In this document: in pieces, positions 17,552 to 50,740 of the stretch
Position numbering within the stretch: position 1 is the stretch's first letter
How the letters are laid out: every line of letters begins with the position of its first letter
Assembly (NCBI GenBank): GCA_004764695.1
Contig: SMSO01000014.1
Location: 4,846,845-4,910,844, forward strand
Direction: 5' to 3'
Origin: Schizochytrium sp. TIO01
Lineage: Eukaryota > Protista > Bigyra: Labyrinthulomycetes
DNA length: 64,000 bases
Translations under genes and position numbers: made by a program
The notes under the pieces: generated by a model
Told to the model about the DNA's origin: nothing
What the model saw: only the letters and a program-made list of their open reading frames with translations
Databases searched by the model: none

Positions 17552-17552
<1 letters not shown>

Positions 17553-18494: not shown

Positions 18495-19166
18495 CTACGT
18501 ACATGCATGTGTGCTTGCAAGTCCAATGGTCAAGTGTAACTCTCCTGTTAATCGATCGTTGTGCTTGCAAGACTCATACATTAGAGTGCACTTTTTAATT
18601 ACTCGTTGTCTAGACATATCTAATTGCTTTGTAACCCTTTCTACTTGTTCTTGGGGGAGAAAGGGGCGAAGGTCCACTTCATAGAGCTCATAAAGGATGC
18701 CCAAGTGATTCACCGCTTCGAGCTTATCGAGAATAGTATCAGAGACAGGTGTGTAGTTGGCATAGGCTTCACAGATATGCATAATCTCACTTTCTGTGAG
18801 ATAGGCCCATAGCCCACTTTTTTCTCCGAAAAGCAAAATGACTGATGCTCGTAGCTTCAAGGCAAAGACTGACCATTCGTCGTTCTGTAACACGGCTTTG
18901 GTGACGTCCGCCCAAAGCTCCTGCGATATCTCATCGACCGATTTTCCTTGGAGGCTGGTGGCTTCATCAGTGAGCATTGATAAGGCTTGTTGCTCAATTA
19001 CATAATCATTAATGAGGACGTAAAGAAATGATAAATGACCAATGCGCGGAATGCGAGTGGGAAAGGGCAAGACTTGGGTTGCGCGCTGGCGCCTCCTATC
19101 TTTCGATGGATTGGGCCTGCGCCGCGCATCGCCCTGGCATGATTGACGCTTCGGTTGATGCTTCAT
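18495..19166 (-). CDS. Hypothetical protein with basic N-terminus; possibly 3'-truncated at the island edge
   Basis: 223-aa ATG ORF with A-rich leader and helical globular composition. Confidence 0.6.
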   Translation of the reverse strand: MKHQPKRQSCQGDARRRPNPSKDRRRQRATQVLPFPTRIPRIGHLSFLYVLINDYVIEQQALSMLTDEATSLQGKSVDEISQELWADVTKAVLQNDEWSVFALKLRASVILLFGEKSGLWAYLTESEIMHICEAYANYTPVSDTILDKLEAVNHLGILYELYEVDLRPFLPQEQVERVTKQLDMSRQRVIKKCTLMYESCKHNDRLTGELHLTIGLASTHACT

Positions 19167-19266
19167 TTTTTTTCATTGGTTAGAAGTTAGGGATTTGGTG
19201 GAAGGTAAGTGCGTCTTTTTTTTATATTATTATTATTAATTTATTTTTATTAAAAAAAATAAAGTA

Positions 19267-20231
19267 TTATGGAATATAATCCAAGAGCTTGCAAATATCA
19301 CCGTGTCTATGGCGCAAGATAATCACTACCTTGTTGAAAAGCCTACGGAGAGACGAAGAGGGGGGCAAAACAGATGCTCTGTGTTTCATCCCATTTATTG
19401 CTGAGTGAGTCGTCATGGCTAGATACCTGAGGTCTTTTTTTACTAAAAGCATAAGCTCATCATGAAATCGCCCGTTGATTCCAGTGATTCCATTGAAGAC
19501 AATGTGCTTGTAGTCACGCATCACAATGGTATATGTGTGATTAAAGGTATTTACGTGATTTCCTTCGGCACTGGTCATTTTTTTGCAGGCGCCAGTAGAT
19601 GCCATTTTGACGCGGGGGTAGCAAAACCCGAGCAAAACGCGAAGATAAGGGCGATTTTGTCTTCGAATAAGCAACAAGGAGATTCTAACAATCGCGCCAA
19701 AAGCTTCGGCGTCGACCTGTTCTTGCTCAGCTGCAATGGAATTCTCAGTCTGATTATAACCAATCAACATATTTGGTTGCAGAGTTGATATTGGTGCAGT
19801 ACCGTTCTTGATTCGGCCAAGACACTGAGGCAATGTGAAACAAAATAGCTGACAGCTGATCCTGTTTGATTTTGGTCGAACAACTTCTCGCACTCGGCCA
19901 AATGTTGCCTCGTTTTCAGGATGTAAGGCAATAATATGGATGCGTTTTGGTTCTGGAGTGGATTATCAGCGACTTGGTTGCAGAATGCATCATTATTGAA
20001 GAGCGCGAAAGCTTCAATAACTCCATATTCCTCGAGCACTTCAGAAATTTGTACACCAAATGACTGCATGTCCTCAACTTGGGCGTCTCTAAACGTCCGT
20101 TTGCCTTTACCATTCCCAGCCCAATCGGTGCTTTGGCAGTTGGGGCTACACTGCACACCCATCTTTGGTTGCCGCTGGCAGCGGTTAGTATTTAAAATAC
20201 AACCAACGAACGACACTGTACTATCTGACAT
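19267..20231 (-). CDS. Hypothetical protein(s): either two overlapping genes (ATATGTTGA junction ~19770) or one frameshifted gene
   Basis: ORFs 19764..20231 and 19267..19893; A-rich leader before ATG 20231; minus-strand AATAAA at 19240-19251 after the stop. Confidence 0.55.
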
Positions 20232-20283
20232 TTTTTTTTGTTTAAAATAAGAATTGTTTTTTTTTATTGTTTTCCAAAGAGAA

Positions 20284-20317
20284 ATGCCCAGTCATATATA
20301 TATATATGACTGGGCAT
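20284..20317. promoter_or_regulatory. Perfect 34-bp palindrome with a central TA run between divergent genes (candidate bidirectional TATA promoter)
   Basis: ATGCCCAGTCATATATA|TATATATGACTGGGCAT; centre ~70 bp from both ATGs (20231 and 20373). Confidence 0.7.
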
Positions 20318-20372
20318 GTTCAACGCCTCATTAAGGAATTTTTATTTTAATTCACCAAAAAAAAAAGAAAAT

Positions 20373-21035
20373 ATGGCCTTCTATACTCGCTTTAACTGGA
20401 CAACCTCATCTAATGATAAATTTGAAATCCCTCATACAGCACTGGACATTATCCTGGAACTTCTGGACCCAAATGTTGACTACCTTTGGGAACCCTTTCC
20501 TGGGACAGGCAGAAGTACGCTTCACATGCGCTCGCGCGGCTTCAGCGTCACGAACAACATCGGTAGTGAGGACTTCTTCGAGTCTGAACTGCCCAAACCA
20601 CCCGAGGGCAAGCGCCTTGTTCTGCTCTCTAACCCACCATATAGCATAAAGAAACAAATCATTGAACACATTGAATACAAACTTATGCCACAGGGCCTTC
20701 GAAGCGTGGCACTCTTCGTCCCAGCTTCCGTTCTCTACGCGGCCTACTTTCGGCCAATCACGGAAGGCAGGCACCTCCAAATGGTGGTGCATACTAGTCG
20801 CGTCAAGTTTATTGAAGCTGATACAGGAAAGGCTGTGGTCCCCAAGCCGTCGCGGAAAGGCCAGTCAGGCGCGAGCTTTGACACCGCGTGGTTATGTCTT
20901 GACTTATGCCTTCACAAAGACATTATTATCGCCTTGCCTGATGACAAGATAGGGAAAAATAAACGTTCAAGAAGAGAACGGGCAGAGGAGAAGGCATGCA
21001 AGAGGAAACAAATTTGCTCCCCAGCAAAACCTTAA
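20373..21035 (+). CDS. N6-adenine DNA methyltransferase (gamma-type motif order), with basic NLS-like tail
   Basis: Motif I WEPFPGTG, DFF, motif IV NPPYS; C-terminal KNKRSRR...KRK; ATG 20373 follows a poly-A leader. Confidence 0.85.
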   Translation: MAFYTRFNWTTSSNDKFEIPHTALDIILELLDPNVDYLWEPFPGTGRSTLHMRSRGFSVTNNIGSEDFFESELPKPPEGKRLVLLSNPPYSIKKQIIEHIEYKLMPQGLRSVALFVPASVLYAAYFRPITEGRHLQMVVHTSRVKFIEADTGKAVVPKPSRKGQSGASFDTAWLCLDLCLHKDIIIALPDDKIGKNKRSRRERAEEKACKRKQICSPAKP

Positions 21036-21041
21036 TTCAAG

Positions 21042-21473
21042 ATGGTCAAATATGGCTTTTGGCACTGGTGTATTGCCTGGGGGGTCTTAATTGGTGCATT
21101 GGGGCTATTCATATTATTGTCAAACATTCGCTTCATCACAAGTGTCATTAGTAATACAGTCCTTCTGTTTCACTCCCTTTATCTTTGGTTGTGCGGTTTT
21201 AGAGTAGATTCCTTGCATGATATGGGAAACTATATAGACTCGAGTCGTATCAGCAACGCGAACTCGCGCCTGGAAGAATTACCCAACTATTTTTCCAACA
21301 TCTGGTTTTTCTTCAAATTCATTCTTACCGAACCTATCAGGATGATGTGCAATGTGATTGGGTTGCTCTATTATATGGTCGTAATACAATTCGTATCCCT
21401 ACGAGCCCTACGAAGTGGTGAAGAGGTGATGCCTGCTGTCGAATCAGTTATGAAACAAGTATTGGAAGAGTAG
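21042..21473 (+). CDS. Small membrane protein, paralog A
   Basis: 143 aa, hydrophobic helices; aligns with the adjacent ORF. Confidence 0.75.
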   Translation: MVKYGFWHWCIAWGVLIGALGLFILLSNIRFITSVISNTVLLFHSLYLWLCGFRVDSLHDMGNYIDSSRISNANSRLEELPNYFSNIWFFFKFILTEPIRMMCNVIGLLYYMVVIQFVSLRALRSGEEVMPAVESVMKQVLEE

Positions 21474-21499
21474 CGAGCAGCAAAACCATAACTTGAACC

Positions 21500-21952
21500 A
21501 TGTTGGTCAACTTTGCTACTTGGTGCATCTGGTGGTTGGTTTTACTTGTCCTATGGATCTTCTGTGCATTGAGGTTAGCCTTGCGTGCAATGACCCTCAT
21601 TATCTTGAATGCCATCTTTGTGATTGTGTCATTCTATCATCTGTCATGTGGTTATAAAATCAAGACCTTGCCTGAGATGACGGATAACATGCACTCGAAT
21701 CTCCGGGGAATGTCCACCAACGTCTATGTTAGAGAGAGCGCTGACTCATACCTTCACGAAGTGGTAAATTGTATCTACAACATTGGCTGGGCCCTGGATG
21801 ACTCTATCATGCAACCAATGAGGATGTTGCAGACTATCTCGCTCATGGCGGCAGCCATTGTGGCGGTACAAGCCATCTCGGTGAAATCCATCATGACTAC
21901 AGGGGCTTGGCCCTCTGATCTCGGTGAAATCATAGACAAGTATAGAAATTAG
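21500..21952 (+). CDS. Small membrane protein, paralog B
   Basis: 150 aa; WCIWW/WCIAW, SCGYKIKTLPEM/LCGFRVDSLHDM and QPMRML/EPIRMM shared with paralog A. Confidence 0.75.
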   Translation: MLVNFATWCIWWLVLLVLWIFCALRLALRAMTLIILNAIFVIVSFYHLSCGYKIKTLPEMTDNMHSNLRGMSTNVYVRESADSYLHEVVNCIYNIGWALDDSIMQPMRMLQTISLMAAAIVAVQAISVKSIMTTGAWPSDLGEIIDKYRN

Positions 21953-22066
21953 TTTACATCATTGATTTGTGCGTTTGAAAAAAAAAGAAGATTTAATTAA
22001 GCATTAATTATAATAAAAAAAAACTACACTTATTTGGCTCGAGCAAACCTCCGCTCAAAGCTGGGT

Positions 22067-22224
22067 ATTTATGTATTCTTCTTTTTATTTTACTCTTTAA
22101 ATAAATCACGCTTTTCTCATATTATTACAGGAGGAGAAAACACTTGGATGGATTTATGTATTCTTCTTTTTCTTTTAATTGATTTTAATTAATTCATTAC
22201 GAGGTACGCTTTTCTCATTACAAG
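22067..22224. repeat. Imperfect ~65-bp direct duplication upstream of the REase-kinase gene
   Basis: ATTTATGTATTCTTCTTTTT...ACGCTTTTCTCAT occurs twice. Confidence 0.75.
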
Positions 22225-22324
22225 TTGTACACACACGCGAGCGAGCGAGGGAAAAGCTTCAATTGCAGCAAAACCATCATCAGCGGCAAGCAAAACGCAA
22301 ACGACAACCAGGCCAGGCGACAGC

Positions 22325-24232
22325 ATGCCGGACTCTGACGTCAGTAGTTTCTCCGAAAATGACTCTGATGTTGAAGATGATGTATATTCACTCGATCGCA
22401 TGAAGGGAATGAGCGACGAGGACCTTCAGGGTATAAACCTGGCTAGGGTAGACATGAATGGAAAAACCCTTAAATTTCTCCTCGGAAAACGCAAGCAATT
22501 GACCAATAACCAACAAGAGCTGCTCAAACAATTCAAGAAATTGGCACGGAAATCCCGTCAACGGGAAGAAGCAAGAGAACAACGGGGAATACAAATAGGC
22601 GTTGCTAGCTTGCAGGAGACCGTGACGGTGGCGCTAGAAAAGAACCTCTTTTCTAGCATTGCGTGGGAACTGCCGAAGTCTACAGCGAGAACACCATCGT
22701 CATGGGCTTTGACGTTTACCTCACTCATGGCGTGGGAGGAATTCGAGGAAGAAGTAATTTACAGTGAAGACTTTACGGGCTCTGATTTCCTAGGAGAAAT
22801 GATTGCGAAAGTTATTTTCAATCCCTTGCAAAAGCTCGACATTCGCCAAAATGCCGACAGTGCAAAAATACATTTCCTCACTAAGGTCTGTTATCCATTC
22901 CAAACCTTGGGGCAGGAGGTTGCTAACTTCCCTGAGATCAGTATTGAGTCTGAACAAAACATCGGTCTCGCACTGAAGTCGGATATTAACCTATTGGCAA
23001 TTGAAAATGAAAACGGGAGACAGGTTTCCAGGGTTTTCTGTGTCATCGAGGCAAAGCGACCAAACCAGTTCCTGACAGAACATGGGGGTCGAACAAATCA
23101 AACCGTGGAAAAACGCAGGAAGAGAGCAGAAAATATCGAAGCGGCCAATGATCCCCGCGGTCATCTTCGGGCTGGTCTCTGCCAGTTGCTTGGATACATG
23201 GTAATCTACGGTCTGAAGTACGGAGTTCTTACGTCTTTCGAGCTCACGTACTTCTGCAAGCGAGACGAAACAGGTCAGATGTGGGTTTCAAAGGGATTCT
23301 ACGGAATTCAGAAACAACATGAACCTAGTGTCAATTTTACGATGGCCGCGTTCATCTATAAAATCCTTCACGACAACGAAAGAAGGCTCCCCTACCCGTC
23401 CCTGCAGAACCAGTCGGTTGAAGTACAGGAGTTTTATCTACATTGCCAGGAGAGCTGGGGCGGGAAGCCGGTCGATAGGAATAACACACTCGAGATTTTG
23501 GAGAACGTTATAGGAAGGGCTTGCGCAGAGTTCATCAGAACCACGATAAAGAGAGCAGCCGGTGAAAACGACGAGATCGAGGCTCTCCGCGATAGAGTCG
23601 CCAGTCTCCTGCCTCTGAATGAGGAGGCATTCAGCATACCTCTGCCATGGGAGGAGGATTTTAATATTGTGGCGGAAGGTGTGGCTCGGATTCCTTGGAT
23701 TTCCTATGAAGGTTTCACATGGAACGTCTTTGTCAAAGCTATGCTAATTTCGAAGGATTGGCCGGCCTGGGTTTGGGCGGAGAACAAGGAGGCCTTTCTT
23801 AAAGAAGTTGAGTTCTACAAGGGCCCACTGCACAAATTGCAGGGTCTTTACATCCCTTTCTTGGTGTATGGCGGCGTGTTCCATGACCAAGTAATCATCG
23901 CCACGACCTCTTCGGGTTTAACTGCGACTAAAGAGCTGGTGATCACTCATCGTGATTGGGCGCCCCGTTCCATCAGAAAATCACTTGCGTGTGTGCATCA
24001 GGCGGGCGTCTTGCATGGCGACATTGCCTGGCGCAACATCGCGCTCGACCTGGAGTCCAAGACTGCGCATTTGATCGACTTTGGCCGCGCCACACAACAT
24101 AAAGACCCCAAGGAGTTTGAGAAGTTGCAAACTGAAGAAAAGGAGGCGCTTGAGGACTTGCTGTCCTGTGTCAGCGCGCGGAAGCGTCTGCGCGACTCAT
24201 TTAGATCTTTCAAGGAAGCACTTGGTGTGTGA
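22325..24232 (+). CDS. PD-(D/E)XK restriction-endonuclease-fold + protein kinase fusion (Crinkler-type REase-kinase) #1
   Basis: KSDINLL...VIEAKRP...LCQLLGYM...YGVLTSFELTYF nuclease-like module; kinase VFVKAM, KEVEFY, LHGDIAWRNI, LIDFG; AATAAA overlaps the stop. Confidence 0.8.
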   Translation: MPDSDVSSFSENDSDVEDDVYSLDRMKGMSDEDLQGINLARVDMNGKTLKFLLGKRKQLTNNQQELLKQFKKLARKSRQREEAREQRGIQIGVASLQETVTVALEKNLFSSIAWELPKSTARTPSSWALTFTSLMAWEEFEEEVIYSEDFTGSDFLGEMIAKVIFNPLQKLDIRQNADSAKIHFLTKVCYPFQTLGQEVANFPEISIESEQNIGLALKSDINLLAIENENGRQVSRVFCVIEAKRPNQFLTEHGGRTNQTVEKRRKRAENIEAANDPRGHLRAGLCQLLGYMVIYGLKYGVLTSFELTYFCKRDETGQMWVSKGFYGIQKQHEPSVNFTMAAFIYKILHDNERRLPYPSLQNQSVEVQEFYLHCQESWGGKPVDRNNTLEILENVIGRACAEFIRTTIKRAAGENDEIEALRDRVASLLPLNEEAFSIPLPWEEDFNIVAEGVARIPWISYEGFTWNVFVKAMLISKDWPAWVWAENKEAFLKEVEFYKGPLHKLQGLYIPFLVYGGVFHDQVIIATTSSGLTATKELVITHRDWAPRSIRKSLACVHQAGVLHGDIAWRNIALDLESKTAHLIDFGRATQHKDPKEFEKLQTEEKEALEDLLSCVSARKRLRDSFRSFKEALGV

Positions 24233-24338
24233 ATAAAATGAACATGAATATTTGGAACTCGTGAAAGACGATGAGGCACGTCATCGCTTTAATCAGAAAA
24301 TGAAGTAAATATTTTTTTTTTTCAAAGCTTATGCATTT

Positions 24339-25319
24339 TTAGATAGCATCTCCCTCCTCCTTGTCGCCTTCCCTTTGTTCTTCACTTTCCGAGTAAAGGA
24401 TGCATTTGTCGTCTTCATCAGGGTACTCTCTGGAAAATTTCGTTTCAATGTCCAAGGGCATGACAGTCGCCTCTGTGAGGTCAGTTGTTGCTGAGCGCAC
24501 CCTACCCATGCATTTTCGCTGAAATAAAATGATCGCTGCCCGTGCAACGAAAAGCCCCAGCACCATTCCCACCAAGAGACCGGACCCGAAAAACACATTC
24601 TTGATAATGAGATTCTCAATGCGAATCAGAATAATAAAGACCACTGCGAGGACCAATGCAGGCACTACGAAGGCTACCATGGTACATGCGTCTCCAACCT
24701 CGCATGCAAGGATGGGGATATAAATCATCAAGGCTGTGCAAAAGGTCATGGCCAGGCCAATGAAGAAACTGGACGCATTGTCATGGAGCGTGTGGCCTGT
24801 GGCACCAAAGCATAGCTCTGGCGATGAAGAGTTTAGTGTGACACAGGTACTATAAGGGTCTTTGCAAGAAAGAGCTGTGATATTGGCATCAGTGAATCTG
24901 GTTTCGACTTCATACTCCATGGTGGAGATGATGAGATTGTAGCCCATAAAGTCCTGGTCCAGTTCCACTGTTTCATCTTCCTGAACATGGTAGGCAACCT
25001 GAAGTGAGGTGGGGGCAAGTGGATTTAAATACTGGCTCGACTTGGCTGCACCGACAATGGACCAAATATAACCACTGCACGATAGTAAGTCGGGCTGGTT
25101 CGTGAAACTTGCACAAAGGTGATACTCGCATGAAATGACCTGATTAACACTATCCAATTGAAAGCTCTTGTCACTCACACTGGATGTGCACAAAAGCGTC
25201 TTACTTGATAAGTTAAGGTGGCAGCCAAGGACCTTATTGCTATAGTAACTGATAGCTTCCCCCCCAACTGCCGCAACTGCAACTGCCGCAAAGAGAATAG
25301 GGTAGACTATCACATGCAT
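24339..25319 (-). CDS. Signal-peptide-bearing Cys-rich membrane protein with C-terminal TM helices
   Basis: 326 aa; N-terminal hydrophobic signal, Cys-rich ectodomain with NxS/T sites, ~3 TM segments, acidic tail. Confidence 0.75.
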   Translation of the reverse strand: MHVIVYPILFAAVAVAAVGGEAISYYSNKVLGCHLNLSSKTLLCTSSVSDKSFQLDSVNQVISCEYHLCASFTNQPDLLSCSGYIWSIVGAAKSSQYLNPLAPTSLQVAYHVQEDETVELDQDFMGYNLIISTMEYEVETRFTDANITALSCKDPYSTCVTLNSSSPELCFGATGHTLHDNASSFFIGLAMTFCTALMIYIPILACEVGDACTMVAFVVPALVLAVVFIILIRIENLIIKNVFFGSGLLVGMVLGLFVARAAIILFQRKCMGRVRSATTDLTEATVMPLDIETKFSREYPDEDDKCILYSESEEQREGDKEEGDAI

Positions 25320-25437
25320 GGGAGCGTGACGGTTAAGTTTTTATCCATACTCTGATGAGCTAACGTATATATATCATCGCTCGCCTGCAGAAACAAAGCA
25401 AAATATTCACAAAACCTTAAACCAAGTGCATGACACA

Positions 25438-26562
25438 ATGGCACCGTGCCCGACTAGCCATGTCCCTGGCATGCATGGTCGCTCTGACCTTGAGTGCCCG
25501 AGTAACCGAAAGTCAAGAGAAACCCAAAGCCAGGTCTCTTCGGTACCAGAGACATGTTCGACAGGAAGCAGCCAGAGTGACATACCTCGTCGCTTCAGAC
25601 AAATTATCTTCTTCGATTTAGAAACGACAGGGTTTGCGCCTCTGCCGCTACTCGCCAAGAGCAACCAAATTGTACAGATTGCTGCCAAGCGACTGAGTGA
25701 CGGCAGGTTCTTCCAGAGTTTTGTAAACCCACAAATGTACATTCCGCCGCATAGCAGCAAGTTGCATCACATTCATAACAGAGACGTGGAAGATGCTCCT
25801 CCGTGGCCCCGTGTCTTGAGCAACTTCATCAGCGAGATGGAAATCGATGATGAAACCTGTCTCGTTGCACATAACTCAAAGTGGTTTGATGAAATTGTCC
25901 TGAAGCGCTGCTCGATGGAGACGGGAAGTCTAGGTCTCTTGCCACAGGGCGTTGTCTTCTGGGACACTCTCCTATACATGCGTGCCAACTACCCAGACAT
26001 GCCCTCCTACCGTCTTGGAGACTTGCATGAATTCTTCTTCGACGAACCGATTGAAAATGCACACCGTGCTGATGCTGATGTGGAAGCACTTATGCGTGTC
26101 TTCCAGCACTGTATCAAAGAGCCTGAGCTTAGCCGTTGGAGCCCAAAACCTCCCGTTTTCGTGAGCGATTTGCGATTTATAGGGCCCTACCGGACCCGTA
26201 TCGTGCGCGAGACCACAGGGGCAACAAACATCCTGGAACTAGCTTCTTACTTCGGCGGCGACTGGTATGCAATGAATAGATGGCTCTATGATGCCCTGGG
26301 CATTGCCAGTCCCTGCACTCGCATGATCATCATCGCACAAGTCTCCAAGATTGACCCCTGGAACGTGCAATTACTCAGCAACTTTGTGCCTTTGCGTGAG
26401 ATGGGCCTTGAGGGGGCCTTCGATGACGTGGACTATTATGTATCAAAGAGGTACATGGAGACTTTCGAAAGGCGCAACGACGAGGACCAAGAAGTGCCTG
26501 TCTTACGCAGCGTGTTTCTGAGCGGCCAAGCCAGAGCTATACATGCTATTATTGAATGGTAA
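25438..26562 (+). CDS. DEDDh 3'-5' exonuclease (DnaQ/TREX-like) with a C-terminal HhH-like motif
   Basis: ExoI FFDLETTG, ExoII AHNSKWFD, ExoIII AHRADADV; LRFIGPYRTRIV...GATNILEL. Confidence 0.9.
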   Translation: MAPCPTSHVPGMHGRSDLECPSNRKSRETQSQVSSVPETCSTGSSQSDIPRRFRQIIFFDLETTGFAPLPLLAKSNQIVQIAAKRLSDGRFFQSFVNPQMYIPPHSSKLHHIHNRDVEDAPPWPRVLSNFISEMEIDDETCLVAHNSKWFDEIVLKRCSMETGSLGLLPQGVVFWDTLLYMRANYPDMPSYRLGDLHEFFFDEPIENAHRADADVEALMRVFQHCIKEPELSRWSPKPPVFVSDLRFIGPYRTRIVRETTGATNILELASYFGGDWYAMNRWLYDALGIASPCTRMIIIAQVSKIDPWNVQLLSNFVPLREMGLEGAFDDVDYYVSKRYMETFERRNDEDQEVPVLRSVFLSGQARAIHAIIEW

Positions 26563-27115
26563 GCTAAAATTATACTCGGGTGGGGGGGCCCCACAATCTG
26601 AAGTGCGCGTTTTTGTTTCAAATACAAGTTTCAGAAGAAGTAATTGTATAGAAGCGGAAGTAGGAGGTCTTAGACAAACTCGACATTCTACGAACCACCC
26701 CAGTATTGCGGATATCGTAGAAGGCTACTCCGTCCTTGATCATTTCCTGGGTAGTCGAGTCAATACAGTTAGCGATCGGATGGAGAGTGCTGAAGCTGTT
26801 GTGGGGAAGCTTATTGAAATCGAGAACAGTACAGAGCGCGGCAAAAGGTTTAGTGAATATGTGCTCGAAAGGTTGAAACAGACATCTCGCTCGTACTTCA
26901 CTGAGTGGTTACGGTTTCTCCTCCAGTTTTTAGAAGTCCTCTCTAAGCTTCTCGAGGAGTACGCGGAATGTTCAAAAAGAGAAGGGGTTCTTCAATCTTA
27001 CCTACGGTTTTTATTGGGTTGTGCTGATTATAAGGCCTTCGTGATCAACCATAATCCATTAACTGTATGCAAGGATAAAGAAGAGTACGGCCGAAGCCTT
27101 AAAAGAGATCGATAA
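26543..27115 (+). CDS. Hypothetical protein (start uncertain)
   Basis: 190-aa ORF filling the gap between co-oriented genes. Confidence 0.55.
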   Translation: MLLLNGKLKLYSGGGAPQSEVRVFVSNTSFRRSNCIEAEVGGLRQTRHSTNHPSIADIVEGYSVLDHFLGSRVNTVSDRMESAEAVVGKLIEIENSTERGKRFSEYVLERLKQTSRSYFTEWLRFLLQFLEVLSKLLEEYAECSKREGVLQSYLRFLLGCADYKAFVINHNPLTVCKDKEEYGRSLKRDR

Positions 27116-27143
27116 ATCACCTAATGGTACAGATACGGTGATT

Positions 27144-28043
27144 ATGAACACATTCGTATTCATTCACGATACTCTCACCGATGCTGGGCTGGACATGTGT
27201 GCCGAATTCGGTGAATCTGCGCCTCGCAACACGCAGTACATGTTTGGGCTGATCGATGACGCAGTTTACCACCATGAGCTGGCTGGTATCTTCCAGGTTG
27301 ATCTACTACACGCATTTTGTGACCACAAGGGCGAGGCAAGGAAGCGTGCACTTATTCTTCTTGCACAAAATGTCGGTAATCTTATTCTCCATGAAGTGCA
27401 GACCCTTCAGGACGGATATGCTGTGGATTTATCTTCGCTTCGCACGGATGTGTTTAACAGAGGCTCCATCCCTAAGCACCGCACTGCATCACTGTCTTCT
27501 GAGACCAAGTTGCTAAATATCCTAATGAATGAGTTCAAAAAGGAAATGCGGTCGTTGCGACTACGGAAAGGTGACGACACAGATGACGCACGAAAAGACT
27601 TGGGGCAGAATTTTTTTGCAGCAAGGGCAAAGTTGCGTATTTTGCATACCTACCAATCTCGACTGCAGGCACTGGTGGCTCACCAACAACTTAACCCCAT
27701 GACACTGGCCTCCATGGAGCGCGCGAAACAATCAGCACACATAGCTGAGCAAACTGCCATTCGGCTCAAGAACATGTGTATCCAGCATGAATTGATCAAA
27801 AATATGACGATTAAAGAACGAATGGCTGCTTTACACAGGCGATGCCATGAGATAACCAAGGAACGAAATATTCACGAAAAGAATTATCGGGAGCTGCAAA
27901 AATACCAACGCATTTATAACCAAGCTGGCAGAGTTTTGGATTTCCATGGCGTTGTTGATGTGCGCCAAGCACAGGTTCGCTCGGAAATCCACGATGCCAT
28001 CGTTGCCAAACAACGTGAGCTTAATAGCTTTAGATATGCATAA
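27144..28043 (+). CDS. Hypothetical helical/coiled-coil protein
   Basis: ~300-aa ORF; AATAAA overlaps the stop (28043-28048). Confidence 0.7.
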   Translation: MNTFVFIHDTLTDAGLDMCAEFGESAPRNTQYMFGLIDDAVYHHELAGIFQVDLLHAFCDHKGEARKRALILLAQNVGNLILHEVQTLQDGYAVDLSSLRTDVFNRGSIPKHRTASLSSETKLLNILMNEFKKEMRSLRLRKGDDTDDARKDLGQNFFAARAKLRILHTYQSRLQALVAHQQLNPMTLASMERAKQSAHIAEQTAIRLKNMCIQHELIKNMTIKERMAALHRRCHEITKERNIHEKNYRELQKYQRIYNQAGRVLDFHGVVDVRQAQVRSEIHDAIVAKQRELNSFRYA

Positions 28044-28075
28044 ATAAAAAAAGATCTGGCAATGTTTGTGTAAGC

Positions 28076-28438
28076 ATGAGTAGTTGTTGTGACGCAGAGT
28101 GTGGTGGTGCCTGTGCGGGATTTATTGATGAGCCAGCCCCGCGCTATGTTGAGGACATCCCGGCTTGGGAGTTAAGGCGTTTGCGGGCGGCAGTTGCCCT
28201 TGAGGTGAATGAATTGGTTTTGAGAAAAAGCATCCAGCGGGCTCTCTCCGAGAGATACAAGCAGCTTGAATTTGAGCGCCGCGACAAAAGCCGCACCTCC
28301 AACGGCGAGGCGCTCTACCTAGACTACGAAGGATATTACAACCAACGCTATCCCTCCACGATCCCTAACCCTTATAGCGCACTTGCAAGGCCCAATATGT
28401 ATGTTCGAGCTATCCATCATGCTTTTCCCCAAAAATAA
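28076..28438 (+). CDS. Hypothetical protein with Cys-rich N-terminus
   Basis: 120-aa ATG ORF in a compact gene array. Confidence 0.55.
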   Translation: MSSCCDAECGGACAGFIDEPAPRYVEDIPAWELRRLRAAVALEVNELVLRKSIQRALSERYKQLEFERRDKSRTSNGEALYLDYEGYYNQRYPSTIPNPYSALARPNMYVRAIHHAFPQK

Positions 28439-28517
28439 TCTCTCTTCTTTTTTTTTCGTCTTTCTCTTAAAGATAAACATGGTGACTCATGGCAGTGGAT
28501 TTTTTGAATACGAAGTC

Positions 28518-29060
28518 TTAAAAGATAATCTTTAAGTTTTTAATTTCTTCATTCTTGAGAGGCTCCTTGAAAAGAGCTTTCTTTTGATCGACCTTGGTTG
28601 TTTTTGCAGTATAAAACCACAATGCCGACGTCAGCCAGGCAAGCATGAAGATAATGCCTAAGATGATCATTGTGTAATTGCTCTCGAATCCAAAGGTGGC
28701 CAGGACCGTCGTGTCGATGATAGAGCCATGGCCGTCCCAGAGTTTGATGCCCCCGCATGTATACTCGTTCCATGCATTGAGGAGGCAGGTGGATGTGGAG
28801 CCGCATTGGAAATTTGAAGGAATGCATGACTCACCATCATCCTTTACCATATTTTGACAGACGCTGGCCGAGGAGCCGTCTGCATTGTCTAAAATAAAAC
28901 ATGCAAACCCCGTACGGCACACTCTGTGATGTGTGTAGTTTGAGGCCGTCAGGGTGATTCCACAGATCTCGCCTTCATCCATGTAAGTGACATAGGCAAG
29001 TGACCCGTAAATCGATGTGGGTGCATAAGTAACAGGGGATGCTGATGGGGAGAATGACAT
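28518..29060 (-). CDS. Small Cys-rich single-pass membrane protein
   Basis: 180 aa; eight cysteines in the ectodomain, one TM helix, Lys-rich tail. Confidence 0.7.
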   Translation of the reverse strand: MSFSPSASPVTYAPTSIYGSLAYVTYMDEGEICGITLTASNYTHHRVCRTGFACFILDNADGSSASVCQNMVKDDGESCIPSNFQCGSTSTCLLNAWNEYTCGGIKLWDGHGSIIDTTVLATFGFESNYTMIILGIIFMLAWLTSALWFYTAKTTKVDQKKALFKEPLKNEEIKNLKIIF

Positions 29061-29122
29061 TTTGTTCTACTTAAAACAATGACGAAATCAATATATTTTT
29101 ATTTTATATATTTTGTTTTAAA

Positions 29123-29385
29123 GTTTAAATGATAATTGAGTATTTTTTTTTTAATTCCTTTGTGAGTGTTATATGAAGTAATGTTTAAATGGTAATTGGG
29201 CTTTTTTTTTAAAATATACTTGTGAGTGTTATACCTATAAATTGAAGTAATGTTTAAATGATGTTTGGGTATTTTTTTTTAAATTCACTTGTGAGAGGAA
29301 CACTGAGTTATATATATATATATATATATATATAGTTAAAACCATAAGAGTAACTCTTACATGGCGGTTAAGTATTTTTTTAAAA
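29123..29385. repeat. Three ~60-70-bp AT-rich tandem repeats followed by a (TA)n run and a short hairpin
   Basis: GTTTAAATG..TTGRGTATTTTTTTT..TTGTGAG x3; (TA)n at 29309-29334; TAAGAG-TAA-CTCTTA at 29345-29359. Confidence 0.8.
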
Positions 29386-30326
29386 TGCTAAATTAATTTA
29401 TCAATTAGGGTTTAGACTATATATTATCACTAGGGCATTGGCTCAAGCTGTCAGGAGTGTTCCTAACGTTCCGATTGTTTCATCGATATCATGATTTGCT
29501 CCTACACGATAAAGCCTCGCTTCACACAAAAAAAGAGAAAAAAAACTTTCAACCTATCTCTAAATTCTAAAAAAAATGACGATCAACCAGAAACTGACTA
29601 ACCAAATATTGTTCCAAAAGTTCTATTAATTCTATTTATCTATGATTTGATATTTTTACAATTCATATTAAATAAATGTAGAATGGAGAAAAAAGCTATT
29701 TCTTAATTGAACTTAACACAATCGTTAGAATCACTCAGTATCTCTTTTTTTTCTAAAGAAAATAAGGAATTGGATTCATTCCCTCACCCACAAAGCTTTT
29801 CTTAAATGCTGTTCCAAACGTTCTCGGAGATGTAATGGAGTTTGAAAAGAAAGTGTAATAGGATTGGTTGTGTTTAATGGTAAGTATCACTATGGAGTCG
29901 CTCGATTGCTTGATTCAATTAGTTTCGAAACGCGTGAGTGTATTTGTGTAGGAAGAAGAAACAAACGTGCTAGACAGTATGTTAGTTGTCTAATCCTAAA
30001 TATCAATTTGGCAGGAGAGGCTCTTCATAAAGAGAGGTTATGAATAATAATAGTAAGGTAGGAGGGTAGACTGAATGATTGAAAACATTTTTTTTTGTGT
30101 TTTTTTTGCCAGTGTTGATGTTTGGTATCCCTCTACAATTAGATGCAGTCGCTCCCTCTTAACTCCACTGCGACACATGCCTATAGTATTAATTACATTT
30201 ATTTCTAGTTTTCCTCACAGCATTTATTTCGTGTCTATAGTCTTTCCACTGAGCTCTAAATTTTTCGTGAGGTATAGTTCTTGCAAACACCAACCTCCAT
30301 CTGGGGTTGGTCCTAAGTTGAGAGAA

Positions 30327-32372
30327 ATGTTGAAATTTTCCAGTTTTTTCACCAAGGGCAGAAGTCAAGACCATACGGATGTCAAATTAGTTGATGCTCT
30401 ATTGGAGAATCCTATATTGACAGATGGGGTGGCAGCATCAACCTACCTAAACACGCTATCATCTCTGCGCTCCTCTATGAAAAATCAGGGTGCAGAGGGA
30501 TTTAGAACGTCGGAAAGTCAGCGTCGATCCCACGCACCAGATGGAGAGCCTGCTGGCAATGTAGGTGCACAAGCTGAAGTTCCCATGAAACCTAGTAATC
30601 TTTTCCCATGGAATAGTTTTGACGAAGAAGTTGGACTAGAAAGCAGAGTAGAGTCTCCCACTCTCCAACTCCTGGTGAATCCAACATCGTTTAGACCTCG
30701 ACAAATTTATACTACACGATCCTTGGAAAGGACATCTGCTAACTTGTTCATGACAACGTTCGGAACACCCTTCACGGATTATTACTCATACCAGTTTCGC
30801 AATTCAGACGATCCTAGGCAATCACTGTCATGTTCCCAGGAGTATGATCTCACTTCTTTTCGCACCGATGCTTTGTGGACAATGGTTATTCAACAATCAT
30901 CTCCTCCCGGATTGACTGACATTTTTGGTTGTTCTACCTCTCTAGATGAATATCCACTGCTACCCCACGAACACAAGAACCCACGCACGTTTCCCTTTCT
31001 TGCCGAGCAGTTTCAAGAACTTAACGCATTTTTCGATGACAAGAACAACGTAAACGAGGATGAAGACGACAACCGCAAACCTTCTAAGGACCCTGAAGCT
31101 GAGATTGAATTCTTACAAAAGAAATGGATTAAAGATGTGAGCTACGATAGAACTAAGCTGAAAATGCCCTATGAAAATTTGATCGCTTATTGGAATCGTG
31201 CAGGAGAAGATACACGCCCCGGCATGACCAATAAGTATCGCTATCCGATTATACAGATCTATATTTACATGATTCGTAAGATGACTAAGTATGGCGTATT
31301 AAGTACTTTGGACCATACTTGGTTTCTGAAACTCGACGAGAATAACAACTTGCATATCTCAAGATGTTTTAAGTTCGACGGAGTCGGGACAAAAAATAGC
31401 ATGCGGTATGCCTATGCATGTCTTATTGAAACAGTGCTGGACAATGGTTGTCGGCTGCAATTATCGAAGGACATGCTTATCAAGGCAGGCGAGATTCCTT
31501 CACAGAGAAAAATGCTTCAATCTTGGTTGGACGTGTACAATGAACTAGCACAATCACACGGTCTTGATTCGTTGGACTCAAACACCTCTGGGTCAAAATC
31601 GAAGAAGGGGGGGTCTGGCCGTAATGGTAACACTAGAAAAGGTGGAAATGAAGATTGTGAGGATGGTGTTTCTGATACATTAGATGGTTCCAATAGTAAG
31701 GAAACTGAGGTTGGTTCTCAGAGAGGGTTTCGTAGGAGCACCGATCATTTTCAAAAACTTCGTGAAATGCTACCTTTCCCTCAAGATCAGTTCGAGTACT
31801 ACGGAGGTGTTCATGACACTCTTTACCAGTCTTCACATGGCCAGTTTGGTGGCATGATGCGAGTGACGACTAATGGGGTTGATACTGTCGTCAAGGTTCT
31901 AGATCCACAAAAAAATGTTAAGGGCGAATATCTTAGTAAGGAGGAAGCCGAAGCCAAGAGTGCTGCTCTTGGGCTTCAAGTCTTTCGAAATGAGATGGAT
32001 GTGTACGAGGTTTTGCGTCCCATCTGGGGAACTTTTGTCCCCTTCTATCTGTACGGTGGTTATCATCTTTTTAATGACTTCATTATCGCACTTACCTTTG
32101 AAGGTAGGTGTCTTGATGATTTATCGATGAAGGAGATTACTGTTGAAACGATGAACAAAGCTCGTGCTGCCCTCGATGCAGTGCATTCTCTGAACGTAGC
32201 TCATAGGGATATCGCACTGAGAAATTTTGTACTGAATCATGTGGGTGAAGTTCGTATTATTGACTTTGGTATGGCAAAAATAAATGCATCTAAGGATGAA
32301 ATGAATAAGGACGTGCGATCCTTCAAGAGAGAGTTTCTATTCCTTGACAGAACGGCGACATCTGGAATTTAA
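30327..32372 (+). CDS. REase-fold + protein kinase fusion (Crinkler-type) #2
   Basis: FRTDALW...HEHKNP...IIQIYIYM...YGVLSTLDHTWFL; kinase VVKVLD, NEMDVY, HRDIALRNF, IIDFG; ORF open from 30075, probable ATG 30327. Confidence 0.8.
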   Translation: MLKFSSFFTKGRSQDHTDVKLVDALLENPILTDGVAASTYLNTLSSLRSSMKNQGAEGFRTSESQRRSHAPDGEPAGNVGAQAEVPMKPSNLFPWNSFDEEVGLESRVESPTLQLLVNPTSFRPRQIYTTRSLERTSANLFMTTFGTPFTDYYSYQFRNSDDPRQSLSCSQEYDLTSFRTDALWTMVIQQSSPPGLTDIFGCSTSLDEYPLLPHEHKNPRTFPFLAEQFQELNAFFDDKNNVNEDEDDNRKPSKDPEAEIEFLQKKWIKDVSYDRTKLKMPYENLIAYWNRAGEDTRPGMTNKYRYPIIQIYIYMIRKMTKYGVLSTLDHTWFLKLDENNNLHISRCFKFDGVGTKNSMRYAYACLIETVLDNGCRLQLSKDMLIKAGEIPSQRKMLQSWLDVYNELAQSHGLDSLDSNTSGSKSKKGGSGRNGNTRKGGNEDCEDGVSDTLDGSNSKETEVGSQRGFRRSTDHFQKLREMLPFPQDQFEYYGGVHDTLYQSSHGQFGGMMRVTTNGVDTVVKVLDPQKNVKGEYLSKEEAEAKSAALGLQVFRNEMDVYEVLRPIWGTFVPFYLYGGYHLFNDFIIALTFEGRCLDDLSMKEITVETMNKARAALDAVHSLNVAHRDIALRNFVLNHVGEVRIIDFGMAKINASKDEMNKDVRSFKREFLFLDRTATSGI

Positions 32373-32451
32373 TATAGTTACTCAACAAATAACTAAAATC
32401 AATCTTGTTATGTTTTATCACTTCTATACATTTTGTTTTCCAAAGTAAGTA

Positions 32452-32574
32452 AGGAACACCGAGTTATGTCTATATGAGTGATCCTTGGGCGATTCTTAAC
32501 TCGCTGGTTAATGTATATCTACCGAAAACCCTACAAGCAATTCTTGCATGGCGGTTGAGTATTTTTTTTTAAAA
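32452..32574. repeat. Diverged direct copy of the 29296-29385 element
   Basis: AGGAACACYGAGTTAT and AAAACC-N17-ATGGCGGTTRAGTATTTTTTTTAAAA shared by both copies. Confidence 0.75.
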
Positions 32575-32672
32575 CTCATATGTGGGGTACATACTGAGTA
32601 ATATCTACATACGGGAAAATACTAGAAGTAATTTTTGAATGATGGGATTCCTGTGACAAACAATGTTCTATT

Positions 32673-34115
32673 ATGATGACGGAATTGCAAACAGAAATCC
32701 TTGCAGAAACTATTCGTCGAGCGCAAGAAGCAATGGACGCGGACAAGGTTGTGGAGAACATGGCCCCTGGCGGGGCCAGCGATGCCGATGGAGGACAGCG
32801 TGGTCCTTCAGCTACTGAGACATCGATCATGAAGCAGCGCCGTCTACTGCTGTTGCTGGCCCCGATGGCGGCGGCATGGCGGGCCCTGAAGTTCTGCACG
32901 ATTGTGCCAAATCCACTGGATCCGGTGCTTCAAGCAATGCAAGGAAGAAGCAGCCCTGGGTAACCCCCAAGGGTGAGTATGAAGACGTGGACTACCTCTG
33001 TGAAGACGGCTATGCGTCTTCGGATGACAGCGGGTGCGTCATCGTTGATGACAGCGAGATGCTATTCTTCAATGAAATTTTGTTCAGGGTCGCCGAGTCT
33101 CTTGAACACGAGCATGACATCGTGAAGGACGAAGTCTACTTCAACTCTCCTCGCGAGGAGCCGAGAGAAAAGACCTGGTTGGTGCCTGCTACGACCATCA
33201 CCACCGAGACTATGCAGGCAGCCGCTGGAATGATGAACTTGCCCTCTAAATTCATCACCGGTACCGTTGGCGAGGTTTTCTGGACACTGACAGTAGTGGA
33301 CAAGGCAACGCAGCTGGTGATTAATATGGTTCTCAGCTACCATTATCTCATTAGCAAGCACCCCTTGGGGAGCCCGGGGTGTTACAAGGATATCATGGGC
33401 TACAAGCTTGCGCGTGGCGCGGTCCCGGAAGGCGACCTTGATGCCTTTTGTGTCACTTATGCCCTCCTTATTATCCAAGTCTCGGTCTGTAGAGAGATGA
33501 ATGCCAAACTTGGCCTGCCATTTCAGTTGCAGCCCCTTGACACGGGAATGATTGACTACAGTGACGTCAAGGCAATTATGTCGCCTTACAGCGAGCATTT
33601 TGACAGGAATGACGCCTGGCCTATGCTAAGGTGCCGCATTGTGGCCATCGCACAGTATGCCAAGAAGCGCATAGTTTACCGGGGGACCTTTGGTGCATGG
33701 AGCGGCCCGCAATCCAGTACGGTAGTTGGTGGCCCACCTCTGCGCCTAGGTCCGTGCTCGTACAAACGATACGTGCATATCGTGCAGCGCATTGCGAAGA
33801 AAAAGCTGGAGGCAGTCAAGCAATTGGGTGAGGATAACAGTGTCAGTGACCTTGCCATCTACATTCCACAGGTTGTCCCAGTCACCAAGAGGGACAGCAC
33901 TTCTTCTACTTCGACATTGACTCAGTCCGGTCAATTTGCGGAAACGAGCACAACCACCACGACGACAATCACCACGGTCACGACCAAGCCAATGAGCATA
34001 AAAGACATGTCTTCTGAAGCTTCACCCGCCAAGTCCACCAAGAAAGCTGCCAAGTCCACCAAGAAAGCTGGTGGGAAGAACAGGCTCAGGGGGCGGAGTT
34101 CTCATCAACTTAAGC

Positions 34116-34164
<49 letters not shown>

Positions 34165-34652
34165 TTGATGGATATGCTTTTACCTTTACCGTTGATGGTA
34201 AGCGTGTAAAGGACGATTTCTCAAGCGATGAGGATGAAGACGAGGCGCCTGTCAAGCGGAAGGCCGAGGCTCGCACCAAGCCGTTGTCCAAGGTCAAGCT
34301 TCCCTCCAAACCCAAGTCCAAGGCCAAGCTTCCCGCCAAGCCCAAGTCCAAGGCCAAGCTTCCCGCCAAGCCCAGGTCCACCAAGAAAGCTAGTCGGAAG
34401 CGCAGGGCAGACGAGGAGGTGGAGGAGGAGGACGATGACGATGTCATCAGCTACAGCAGTGTTGGTGAATCCGACGATGACTACGAGTCTATGATTCTCC
34501 CCGAGAATGACGTCGAGGACATGGCCAAGGAGCCCTCAGGCGGTAAGAATACTGGAGAAGAACAAGACCGGCCCCTTGACCGCAGAAGTCGCAGCAAGAT
34601 ATGCAGAAAGAGCCAGGAAGCTTATTTGCAAAACTACTTTAATGGTCGTTAG
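32673..34652 (+). CDS. Hypothetical protein with poly-Asp tract and histone-H1-like Lys/Pro/Ala repeats; split by two frameshifts (~32820, ~34075)
   Basis: ORFs 32673..32963, 32876..34120 and 34071..34652 join with single-base changes; (GAT)~16 at 34116-34163; 30-bp repeats encoding KAKLPAKPKS. Confidence 0.65.
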
Positions 34653-35066
34653 TTAATAATAATAAGAATAACTTGGACTTGAATGATTTGTATGTCCCAT
34701 GAGGTAAGGAATCATTTCATCGACGAGTTCCTCGGGGCGTCGATTCACAAACCACCAGTTTTCAATGTGCGTCCCGGGATTGTCTCCCTGGCGCACAATT
34801 GATACTTCACTGGGGTGTTTCCCAATTACTTTAGTAAATCCATTATCATTTCGCATAACCACTTCATGGCCCATGGAAAGATCGTTGAAGAAGCGCCTCC
34901 CATCAGGCCCAAGCGCGAGCTTTTCTGGCAAAAACGAATTGCATACAGGGTCTCCAGAAATATGCAAAAATGTCATGAGGTCGCCTTCATTTGATATGTA
35001 CGCATCAAGTACCTTCCCGACCGGTTTATTTGTATCATGTTCAATAAAAACATCCAAGTTCATCAA
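34653..35066 (-). CDS. Capsid maturation (prohead) protease, HK97/assemblin clan SH, probably N-terminally truncated
   Basis: VFIEHD..KPVGKV (catalytic His), DLSMGH (catalytic Ser), SEVSIVRQGDNPGTHI; in-frame TAA just upstream; stop abuts the convergent gene's stop. Confidence 0.75.
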   Translation of the reverse strand: MMNLDVFIEHDTNKPVGKVLDAYISNEGDLMTFLHISGDPVCNSFLPEKLALGPDGRRFFNDLSMGHEVVMRNDNGFTKVIGKHPSEVSIVRQGDNPGTHIENWWFVNRRPEELVDEMIPYLMGHTNHSSPSYSYYY

Positions 35067-36651
35067 GATTTATCGCGCCGAGGTTGTCATTGTGGCAGTG
35101 AGGGAATGGTGCTTCATTCTGGAGGCATTGACGAACTGCACGCCACGCAGTCATTCCAATTCACCCTCGCTCGCAAGATGATCGCCGGGGCTAGCCTGAA
35201 ATGGGAATGGGATGCTGGCTTCATGCGCGTGCTGCGCGTGGCGTGAGAAAGCAAGGCCTCCTCGCCAGAGATTGATTCCTTGATTCCCTGATCCGTTGAT
35301 CCTCTCACATCGATTGATTTAGTAAAATAATTGACTTTACCGAATGAGTGCCGAATTGAGTGAGGGACCGACTGGCCAGCTAAAGACCACTTTGGCTGGC
35401 TCACACCACTGATCAGCGCGAACGACCTTCCAAGCTCCCCGCTGCTCACAAAATTAGCATCGAATACAGCCTTTTGGTTACGAAAAGACAAAGCGCCAAG
35501 ATAGACCAAGTCTGAGAATGTGGAATCGCGATTTGAGATCTCCAAGCAACCACTCGAAGGTTGCTTCTATCAAAATTTCACCTGATCAAATCAGGTTGAA
35601 ATAAGTTAGTCGCTCCAAGCTCAGAGCTGGAACTTTCAAGTTGTGTCTTAGAATAAGAATCCGCAAATGGACCACGGTGATGGAGATCTTAGCATAACTG
35701 GTTTTGAACGACGGTGATGAGGAACACAGTTACATAGTGAGCACACTTACAGATAGTATCTAGCTAGGTAGTATGGAGATTCGCAAGCTCAGCTTCATCC
35801 TCGAATATCGAAGGGGGGAGGAGTCTGATTCCTGAGGCAGTAGTAAAGGATGGCCAACTTGGAAAAAGGTCTGTCGAGAAATTGCTGAAGCAAACCGGAA
35901 TTTGAAGAGATGATAAAAATACGAAGTGCCTTCTCCCTCCGGCCCAGAGAATCAAGAAGCAGTCCGTGGCTTATGAATCCTCTTACCTCGGCCGCCTTAT
36001 GAAATTGTCATGGTCTTCCATGGGACATGGTAGGTAGGAAAGATCCTTACAGCCAATGTTCCCATGATAATGAAAGCAAGATAAATAATAAGGATGATGA
36101 TGATTATTGTTATTTTTTGATGTATTTTATGAAATACCTACCCTGGTACCAGGGTTTATATAATGGACAAAGGCAAGCGTGTTGAGTGAATCTTTTGACT
36201 TGAAACTTTACCCAAGTTTAAAAATCTTAATTCAGTACCTCTGACTGGTGAGAGTGAAAGGCAAGCACTTGCTTGATTCCAGGAGAAGACTTATTGCTAG
36301 TACTTTAAACTAAGTCATTTGCAACTCCAGTCAAAAGAAAATGAGGCAACTTTCATGTAACAAGTTTTCCTTCAATCAGATAAAAGAAAGCATATTTGTT
36401 TTTCAAAATGTTGACAATTAATGATCACATAGATTTATTTTACGTAGCAATAGTTCATTGAAGTCATTCTTTTTGTCCAAGCATATAAGTAGTATTTCAA
36501 CCCTTTTTAAGACGAAGGCGAACAAGGAAACTATATCCAAACTTTGACATGAACATATTTTTAGCGACGCGCGTCTCAGTTATTTATAGGTATAAATTGT
36601 GCATCATAATACATTAGGTATCAGGTGTTCGCTTGTCTAGAGTGCTCTAAA

Positions 36652-50695: not shown

Positions 50696-50740
50696 CTTGC
50701 TGGATGAGCTCTTTGTTGCTGCAAGCAAGGTGAGGAGCAA

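Follow-up and report, generated by a model that had tools for sequence, protein, structure and literature searches.

The closest described counterparts of the gene presented here are the capsid maturation proteases of mirusviruses. According to parts of Gaia et al. (PMC10132985), this protease belongs to the mirusvirus virion module, alongside RNA polymerase genes, and parts of a preprint on thraustochytrids (10.1101/2023.06.15.545109) name TBP and ribonucleotide reductase (RNR) among mirusvirus genes. In the portion of Zhao et al. drawn on here (PMC10827195), 3,165 mirusviral 'Maturation' sequences are counted in 1,348 eukaryotic assemblies; their median lengths are 100-200 amino acids (aa) and many are read as decaying. 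Here we present an open reading frame (ORF) of a 64,000-nucleotide stretch of contig SMSO01000014.1 of Schizochytrium sp. TIO01, the whole of which we refer to as the window. The ORF occupies positions 34653-35066 of the minus strand and, quite probably, is what remains (the last three quarters, at the C-terminal side) of a gene for a capsid-maturation protease of the HK97/assemblin fold, cut at about codon 48 at the border between an insert and host DNA. It would thus be a likely inactive relic of a mirusvirus-type genome fragment that was probably end-joined into the protist chromosome.

Like the endogenous mirusviral 'Maturation' sequences in that portion of PMC10827195, the window ORF is a short, incomplete capsid-maturation-protease ORF in a eukaryotic chromosome. 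Unlike those sequences, as far as they are described there, the borders of its insert are exact to the base, an insert-free form persists and the retained part is undecayed. The window ORF is one more endogenous, probably mirusviral protease fragment, of a kind that this source already reports in bulk, documented unusually precisely. The likeness extends to the mirusvirus enzyme as presented in parts of PMC10132985: the fold is that of HK97/assemblin, the setting is that of large DNA viruses of protists, and relatives of the window ORF lie beside genes for RNA polymerase, TBP, RNR and thymidylate synthase.

The window family also compares with the assemblins of herpesviruses and the prohead proteases of tailed phages. 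Herpesvirus assemblins (MEROPS S21), from varicella-zoster virus (VZV), human cytomegalovirus (HCMV), Kaposi's sarcoma-associated herpesvirus (KSHV), Epstein-Barr virus and pseudorabies virus, are the best structural matches to the model of a full-length relative of the ORF, and yet they have no detectable sequence similarity to the window family, which is about 50 residues shorter. The prohead serine proteases of Caudoviricetes (PF04586; T4 gp21, HK97 gp4) have the same fold and have an E-x-S-x-V strand motif in common with the window family, whereas the gene company of the window family is that of a eukaryotic virus and no phage or prokaryote relatives were found in the collections searched.

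Results

A protease reading frame without its N-terminus

Read from a TTG codon, the ORF encodes 137 aa; an ATG follows one codon later, at 35063-35061. In frame upstream stand a TAA (35072-35070), an ATC and then the TTG, and at the other end the stop codon abuts that of the convergent ORF 34071-34652 on the plus strand. Along the protein the motifs follow one another in the order IEHD (residues 8-11), PVGKV (15-19), DLSMGH (62-67) and EVSIVRQGDNPGTHI (87-101). A preliminary description of the window had listed this ORF, these motifs in this order, the upstream TAA and the abutting stops (34652/34653), and all of them are present.

What the window lacks is the beginning of the protein. Full-length relatives extend about 47 residues further at the N-terminus, a part that includes the nearly invariant G19, Y22 and P24 (numbering of the relative P0002, used throughout). 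With P0002 as query, tblastn against the window matches residues 48-170 only, and the N-terminal part of this protein leaves no trace anywhere in the window. The missing residues 1-47 cover strand 14-22 and helix 42-48 of the predicted model in addition to the three residues just named. The window ORF does not hold a complete catalytic domain. We considered whether the N-terminus might be encoded by a separate exon or, permuted, at the left end of the insert, and dropped both ideas because tblastn found nothing; a 'GILY' resemblance noticed by eye in ORF 18495-19166 was dropped as being out of register. Used alone, the window ORF has no match in Pfam (E 10), in PHROGs (E 1) or among PDB sequences searched by phmmer (E 10).

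A family with invariant His, Ser and E-x-S

A search of 5.8 billion proteins returned two close homologues, well beyond chance (E 1.3e-59 and 1.1e-45). P0001 has 105 aa and is 92% identical to the window ORF; P0002 has 175 aa, is 60% identical and carries 47 extra N-terminal residues. A search with a profile built from these gave 18 proteins at E <= 1 among 5,986 candidates, with 17 at E <= 7e-16, and these 17 family members measure 167-195 aa, the 105-aa fragment P0001 excepted. An exhaustive HMMER search of 1.84 billion cluster representatives found 232 at E <= 0.001, 50 at E <= 1e-10 and 15 at E <= 1e-30. The 1,232-aa protein P0044 (15 matched stretches, E 2.6e-21) was set aside as spurious: it consists of an unrelated tandem repeat of about 80 aa, and its match looks likely to be a false positive inflated by repetition.

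The 17-row alignment has H57, S111, E134 and S136 invariant and G19, Y22 and P24 nearly so. A 22-row alignment, made of the 17 rows, the long relative P0019 and four metagenome ORFs, has I55, H57, G64, L110, S111, E134 and S136 invariant throughout. All seven of these residues are kept by the window copy, which also keeps all 11 nearly invariant columns within its own span and is without all four nearly invariant N-terminal ones. H57 and S111 correspond to His10 and Ser64 of the window ORF, and a catalytic role for both is suggested by their position rather than by residue-level superposition. E134 and S136 follow the Ser by 23-25 residues, and either is a candidate for the third active-site residue. 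The His, the Ser and the E-x-S within the three motifs singled out in the preliminary description are each invariant across the 22 rows. Herpes assemblins have the same order of His, Ser and a third residue about 25 positions later; that third residue is a His in the herpes enzymes, whereas the window family has Glu and Ser at this place.

A maximum-likelihood tree built from the 22 sequences places the window copy together with P0002 and P0003 (support 99/97). Among 150 listed relatives, 58 are at least 300 aa long and 67 fall within 130-200 aa. The long ones among these listed relatives mostly carry the protease match at their N-terminus, and in the two that were read, P0019 and P0050, the protease is followed by a coiled, charged, low-complexity tail, like that of protease-scaffold fusions. 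The window's nearest clade is different in that it consists of a stand-alone protease of about 175 aa without a scaffold tail, as against those 58 of the 150 listed, more distant relatives. This clade lies outside the Pfam thresholds, and the alignment and model obtained here could seed a family model. A 306-aa relative of the window's own clade, P0029, has about 120 extra N-terminal residues in front of a complete protease domain, which could reflect a different fusion or a mis-called start.

A predicted assemblin-like fold

The fold was predicted for the full-length relative P0002 and not for the window fragment. Given the 17-row alignment, AlphaFold2 produced a model with a predicted local distance difference test score (pLDDT) of 90.1 and a predicted template modelling score of 0.86, and the predicted fold is the beta-barrel of clan SH. 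When this model was compared by VIA-align with 48,161 representative solved chains, five reached Z >= 5. At the top is the protease of VZV (Z 11.0, root-mean-square deviation 3.1, 120 aligned), followed by the proteases of HCMV (9.5) and KSHV (7.8), T4 gp21 (6.7) and an unrelated MCE domain (5.0). Foldseek found 39 matches in PDB at E <= 0.001, those listed being herpesvirus proteases only, with probability 1.0. The 173 matches in BFVD at E <= 0.001 are headed by Caudoviricetes prohead proteases. Look-alikes in the ESM Atlas include Peptidase_S78-bearing clusters, which we treat as a lead only.

Curated families are reached through the more distant relatives. Within the 17 members, six match Peptidase_S78_2 (best E 0.0077) and two match Peptidase_S78 (best E 0.032), all of them weakly; P0002 itself scores 16.7 bits with Peptidase_S78_2 (PF14550) against a cut-off of 24 bits. 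Pfam was also run on 84 of 145 newly listed relatives, namely the best-scoring and most of the long ones, with 61 mainly short and weaker ones omitted. Fourteen of these 84 more distant relatives match PF04586 (Peptidase_S78) at E <= 0.001. Its cut-off of 21 bits is passed by 13 of them, among which is P0036, a protein found by the family profile with E 2.7e-26. Because the window ORF and its 16 nearest relatives are below the Pfam cut-offs and distant relatives are above them, the link to S78 is transitive. Peptidase_S21 of Pfam matches none of the 17 members at E <= 1 and none of the 84 relatives at E <= 0.001, and a profile search of PDB with the family alignment gave chance-level matches only (best E 0.11, to a kinetochore protein), without an assemblin at E <= 10.

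Fold, conserved residues and relatives together support the membership of the protein in the HK97-prohead-protease/assemblin superfamily (clan SH). The identification as an HK97/assemblin-type capsid maturation protease, put forward in the preliminary description, agrees with all three; the description had allowed for the case that no clan SH fold would be matched, and AlphaFold with Foldseek gives a clear match. Its further statement that the motifs are intermediate between HK97 and assemblin is only loosely borne out: herpes assemblins give the best structural matches (Z 11.0-7.8; T4 gp21 reaches 6.7), whereas the Pfam link leads to Peptidase_S78 alone and not to S21.

An insert present in some chromosome copies

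The stretch 34300-35700 is contained in 23 runs of 12 studies, under 11 organism labels. Among the contigs of four of these runs, one of run X20 begins at 35062 with 26 foreign letters in front, 21 of which match 18553-18573 exactly. When contigs of four runs were compared over 17000-36500, a joint from 18573 to 35062 emerged; it skips 16,488 bases, has CCAAT in between and is found in X20, X21 and X12; the joint contig of X21 has 166 letters on its shorter side. Other contigs of X12 cross both borders (18544-20313 and 34345-35091), and both forms are therefore seen in one run. Since contigs join 18573 to 35062, the interval 18574-35061 is an insert that is present in some chromosome copies and absent from others. 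Contig depths of 42.9 and 47.5 in the flanks, 21.7-26.7 in the insert and 30.8 at the joint, which are not copy numbers, resemble one copy in two and suggest that the insert is hemizygous.

The right border of the insert falls inside the ATG (35063-35061), so that TTG, ATC and TAA belong to the host flank, and the similarity to the protease starts at this very border. The loss of the N-terminal strands at the right edge of the island, which the preliminary description had surmised, is in this way exact to the base, three runs joining 18573 to 35062. The left end of the insert appears to cut a gene too. No repeats flanking the insert, no terminal repeats and no target-site duplication were found at the borders. 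As both ends cut genes and flanking repeats are missing, end-joining is the likely route of entry. A long ORF across the insert-free junction was also considered; there is none.

Host genes stand on both sides of the insert and its insertion site is identified, as befits an endogenous viral element (EVE). Pfam recognizes MMPL and tetraspanin genes to the left, and APC5 (38057-40972), WD40 and bHLH genes to the right. The window is eukaryotic nuclear DNA; it contains no tRNA and no Rfam family. In another contig of X20 (depth 6.8), 19240 is followed, after one extra letter, by 34655; this joint may be a second structural variant ending at the stop codon of the protease ORF. Spans without cover lie at 36040-36400 in four runs and at 26765-28066 in X12.

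Gene company of the relatives and the likely donor

Relatives of the window protease are encoded at six metagenome loci (L001-L006). The protease relative of L001 is accompanied by RNA polymerase Rpb1 domains 1-5, thymidylate synthase (ThyA), a protein kinase and Lipase_3, that of L004 by TBP, Snf7, dNMP kinase and a PD-(D/E)XK nuclease, and that of L002 has the RNR small chain directly downstream. Judged by these domain assignments, the company of informational genes of the mirusvirus kind belongs to the relatives only (L001, L002 and L004). A tblastn search of 50,697 phage records found no relatives. A scan of prokaryote genomes gave 72 pattern matches, of which none was confirmed, and scans of IMG/VR with two family alignments gave 54 and 62 pattern matches, again with none confirmed; both kinds of scan need a fixed peptide pattern, which makes absence weak evidence. 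Nesting in a bacterial prophage clade, the other outcome that the preliminary description had been wary of, did not occur, as no relatives were found in the phage records and prokaryote genomes searched. Relatives lie beside RNA polymerase, TBP, RNR and thymidylate synthase genes, and none was found in the phage and prokaryote collections. We therefore take a mirusvirus-type virus as the most likely source, a conclusion in which we place good confidence. That the whole insert is viral is a weaker proposition, which we hold to be somewhat better than even.

State and expression of the fragment

P0001 is identical to the window ORF up to GDNPG and then continues in the -1 frame. The contigs that span the ORF in X12 and X16 each show a single gap. 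Under organism label J the right flank runs on into 18573-18188, and in X22 a loose poly-T precedes 36542, which suggests that this run is RNA; the RNA nature of six runs is only guessed, and no listed RNA run contains the stretch. A weak host transcript probably crosses the insertion site. Contig depth over the ORF is below that of its neighbours, from which nothing is drawn, as contig depth cannot rank genes.

The fragment is probably inactive as a protease because it has no first core strand (model strand 14-22), no start of its own and no promoter of its own; any start codon that it uses would come from host letters. To call it the diagnostic virion gene, as the preliminary description did, is right insofar as it marks past viral DNA and goes too far insofar as this copy is truncated, probably dead and not a virion-making element. 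An annotation should label the ORF a truncated viral protease fragment and not a protease gene.

Discussion

In our proposal, the full-length viral enzyme would sit in the procapsid, where the pair His57/Ser111 would cleave the scaffold and the enzyme itself, with Glu134 and Ser136 as candidates for the third catalytic residue. A random fragment of the larger viral genome would have been joined into the protist chromosome by end-joining, its genes being cut at both ends, and the protease gene would have been cut where viral DNA met host DNA.

Several observations weigh against this proposal. Pfam recognizes no HK97-fold capsid, triplex, portal or terminase, either in the context of L001-L006 or in the window; this context measures 2-18 kb on short contigs, and Pfam covers such divergent proteins poorly. 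The 'mirusvirus' label derives from gene company and literature, not from a direct match to reference mirusvirus proteases. A tblastx comparison of the insert with L001-L006 matched the protease only, so that no other gene of the insert is shown to be viral. Pfam gave for the insert only the RNase_T exonuclease, the kinase-like C-terminal parts and a sub-threshold Dam, and the exonuclease, methyltransferase-like and kinase-like proteins found nothing in IMG/VR. The single-sequence AlphaFold2 model of the window fragment failed (pLDDT 33.1), and the fold rests on P0002. What is left of the protease shows no decay, as no conserved residue in it has been lost and the end branch of the window copy measures 0.3 against a median of 0.4 in the 22-sequence tree. 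This state fits a recent insertion and equally fits constraint. The one-base deletion in X22 rests on a contig depth of 4.9 and may be an error, and P0001 is perhaps not independent of it. The frame of the window haplotype is open, and contigs of presumed RNA runs cover the ORF and run into the host flank, to about 35980; the window ORF may be transcribed.

The insert-free form could instead be a secondary deletion, with the island as the remnant of an older, larger endogenous virus whose protease had been truncated earlier by another rearrangement. The CCAAT of the joint stands at neither border of the filled form and could be filler from the repair of a deletion, and the marks of an insertion, a target-site duplication or terminal repeats, were not found. 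The right breakpoint, however, lies within two codons of the end of protease similarity. The DNA to its right, which does not resemble the protease, is common to both forms, and the part of the protease that remains has not decayed. A deletion would have had to end by chance exactly on the older border between virus and host, and we regard this history as improbable, roughly a one-in-eight matter. Less probable still is domestication, in which the truncated ORF would be a host gene, for example one whose product binds to procapsids, or poisons them, during infection by relatives of the donor virus. An open frame with all catalytic and conserved residues of the retained part would suit such a gene, as would the contigs of probable RNA runs that cover the ORF together with host flank and the spread over 23 runs, 12 studies and 11 organism labels; but the first core strand and G19, Y22 and P24 are missing, the start codon is an accident of the junction, a frameshifted allele exists and the insert is not fixed.

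That the ORF belongs to a complete provirus, latent or active, we consider extremely unlikely. Integrated and episomal mirusvirus genomes do exist in protists, according to parts of PMC12606086 and of 10.1101/2023.06.15.545109, but the insert measures only 16.5 kb, cuts genes at both ends and holds an incomplete protease, and the Pfam scan of 42 window ORFs revealed no capsid, portal, terminase or polymerase domain. An origin in a phage or bacterium, by contamination or by transfer of a prophage, is just as hard to credit. It would account for the only Pfam family reached being the Peptidase_S78 of Caudoviricetes and for the phage prohead proteases at the head of the BFVD matches. It sits badly with the lack of relatives in the phage records and prokaryote genomes searched, with the eukaryote-type RNA polymerase, TBP and Snf7 genes that adjoin the relatives, with the eukaryotic genes that surround the ORF on a single contig and in many runs, and with herpes assemblins as the nearest solved structures.

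The reading as a fragment joined in from a mirusvirus-type genome has consequences beyond this locus. Mirusvirus hosts are mostly unknown, and an undecayed, unfixed insert points to recent contact with such a virus, so that a search for one could reasonably begin in this much-sequenced protist. The filled and empty sites, exact to the base, illustrate cleanly how pieces of large DNA virus genomes enter protist chromosomes. At the far end of speculation, and with little expectation that it holds, one may picture a very recent and still segregating capture of mirusvirus-type DNA, in which the truncated protease, with all conserved residues of its span, rides on a host transcript and is perhaps kept as a decoy that enters procapsids of related viruses or blocks them, as EVE-derived immunity does elsewhere but here in a protist; or, at the least, a cultured protist that now hosts a mirusvirus lineage, not yet isolated, whose proteases are stand-alone and assemblin-like.

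Further features of the insert and window

The coordinates of the protease ORF, the insert and their immediate surroundings are collected in Table 1.

Table 1. Positions of the protease ORF, the insert borders and adjoining features in the window
Feature	Position	Strand	Remarks
Putative truncated capsid-maturation protease ORF	34653..35066	-	137 aa; equals residues 48-175 of full-length relatives; keeps His10, Ser64, Glu87 and Ser89
Candidate starts TTG (35066-35064) and ATG (35063-35061)	35061..35066	-	On or across the insert-host junction; the G at 35061 is the only insert DNA
In-frame TAA, two codons before the TTG	35070..35072	-	Within host flank common to the insert-free form
One-base deletion site in the contig of another strain (X22)	34773		Causes a frameshift that yields P0001 (105 aa)
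Insert ('island')	18574..35061		16,488 bp; skipped in X12, X20 and X21 contigs with CCAAT instead; no terminal repeats or target duplication found
Left host flank, last 21 bases	18553..18573	+	Exact match to the loose end of the contig starting at 35062
Right host flank	35062..35980		Continuous with 18573 in the insert-free form; no protease similarity
ORF crossing the left border	18495..19166	-	Host flank supplies its last 26 codons
Convergent neighbour inside the insert	32876..34652	+	Read as two overlapping ORFs; four runs have a 5-base insertion at 34088 that unites the frames

The convergent neighbour of the protease ORF is read in the window as ORFs 32876-34120 and 34071-34652 (plus strand), which overlap in different frames. 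In X18, X20, X21 and X22, five additional bases after 34088 unite the two into one gene of about 590 aa, whereas X19, X16 and X12 are as the window. As the five-base insertion of the other runs joins the frames, this gene is split in the haplotype of the window. ORF 32876-34120 has no usable match in the ESM Atlas.

The base composition and the GC content at third codon positions of the insert are no different from those of its flanks. Also inside the insert, 25426-26562 (plus strand) encodes an exonuclease of the DnaQ/TREX 3'-5' type (Pfam RNase_T, E 2.9e-19; TREX2 in PDB, E 3.4e-6), and such TREX-like exonucleases are the only matches that PDB searches with insert proteins gave. The 239-aa ORF at 20316-21035 (plus strand) has, by eye, the motifs FPGTG and NPPY, and a sub-threshold match to Pfam Dam (E 0.022); it likely encodes an N6-adenine DNA methyltransferase, going by these motifs. 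At 21042-21473 and 21500-21952 (plus strand) lie adjacent small ORFs resembling membrane proteins, which are weak paralogues of each other (27% over 107 aa, E 5e-7).

ORFs 22325-24232, 30075-32372 and 54878-56074 (plus strand) share only a kinase-like C-terminal part (about 110 aa, about 30% identity); Pfam matches none of the N-terminal halves, and the third paralogue (54878-56074) lies outside the insert. Parts of ORF 22325-24232 reach contig depths of hundreds to thousands in several runs, and this ORF looks multi-copy. Outside the insert the window also carries tandem arrays at 5205-5400 (a 12-nucleotide unit, 12 copies in register) and at 50719-50880 (an 18-nucleotide unit, seven copies).

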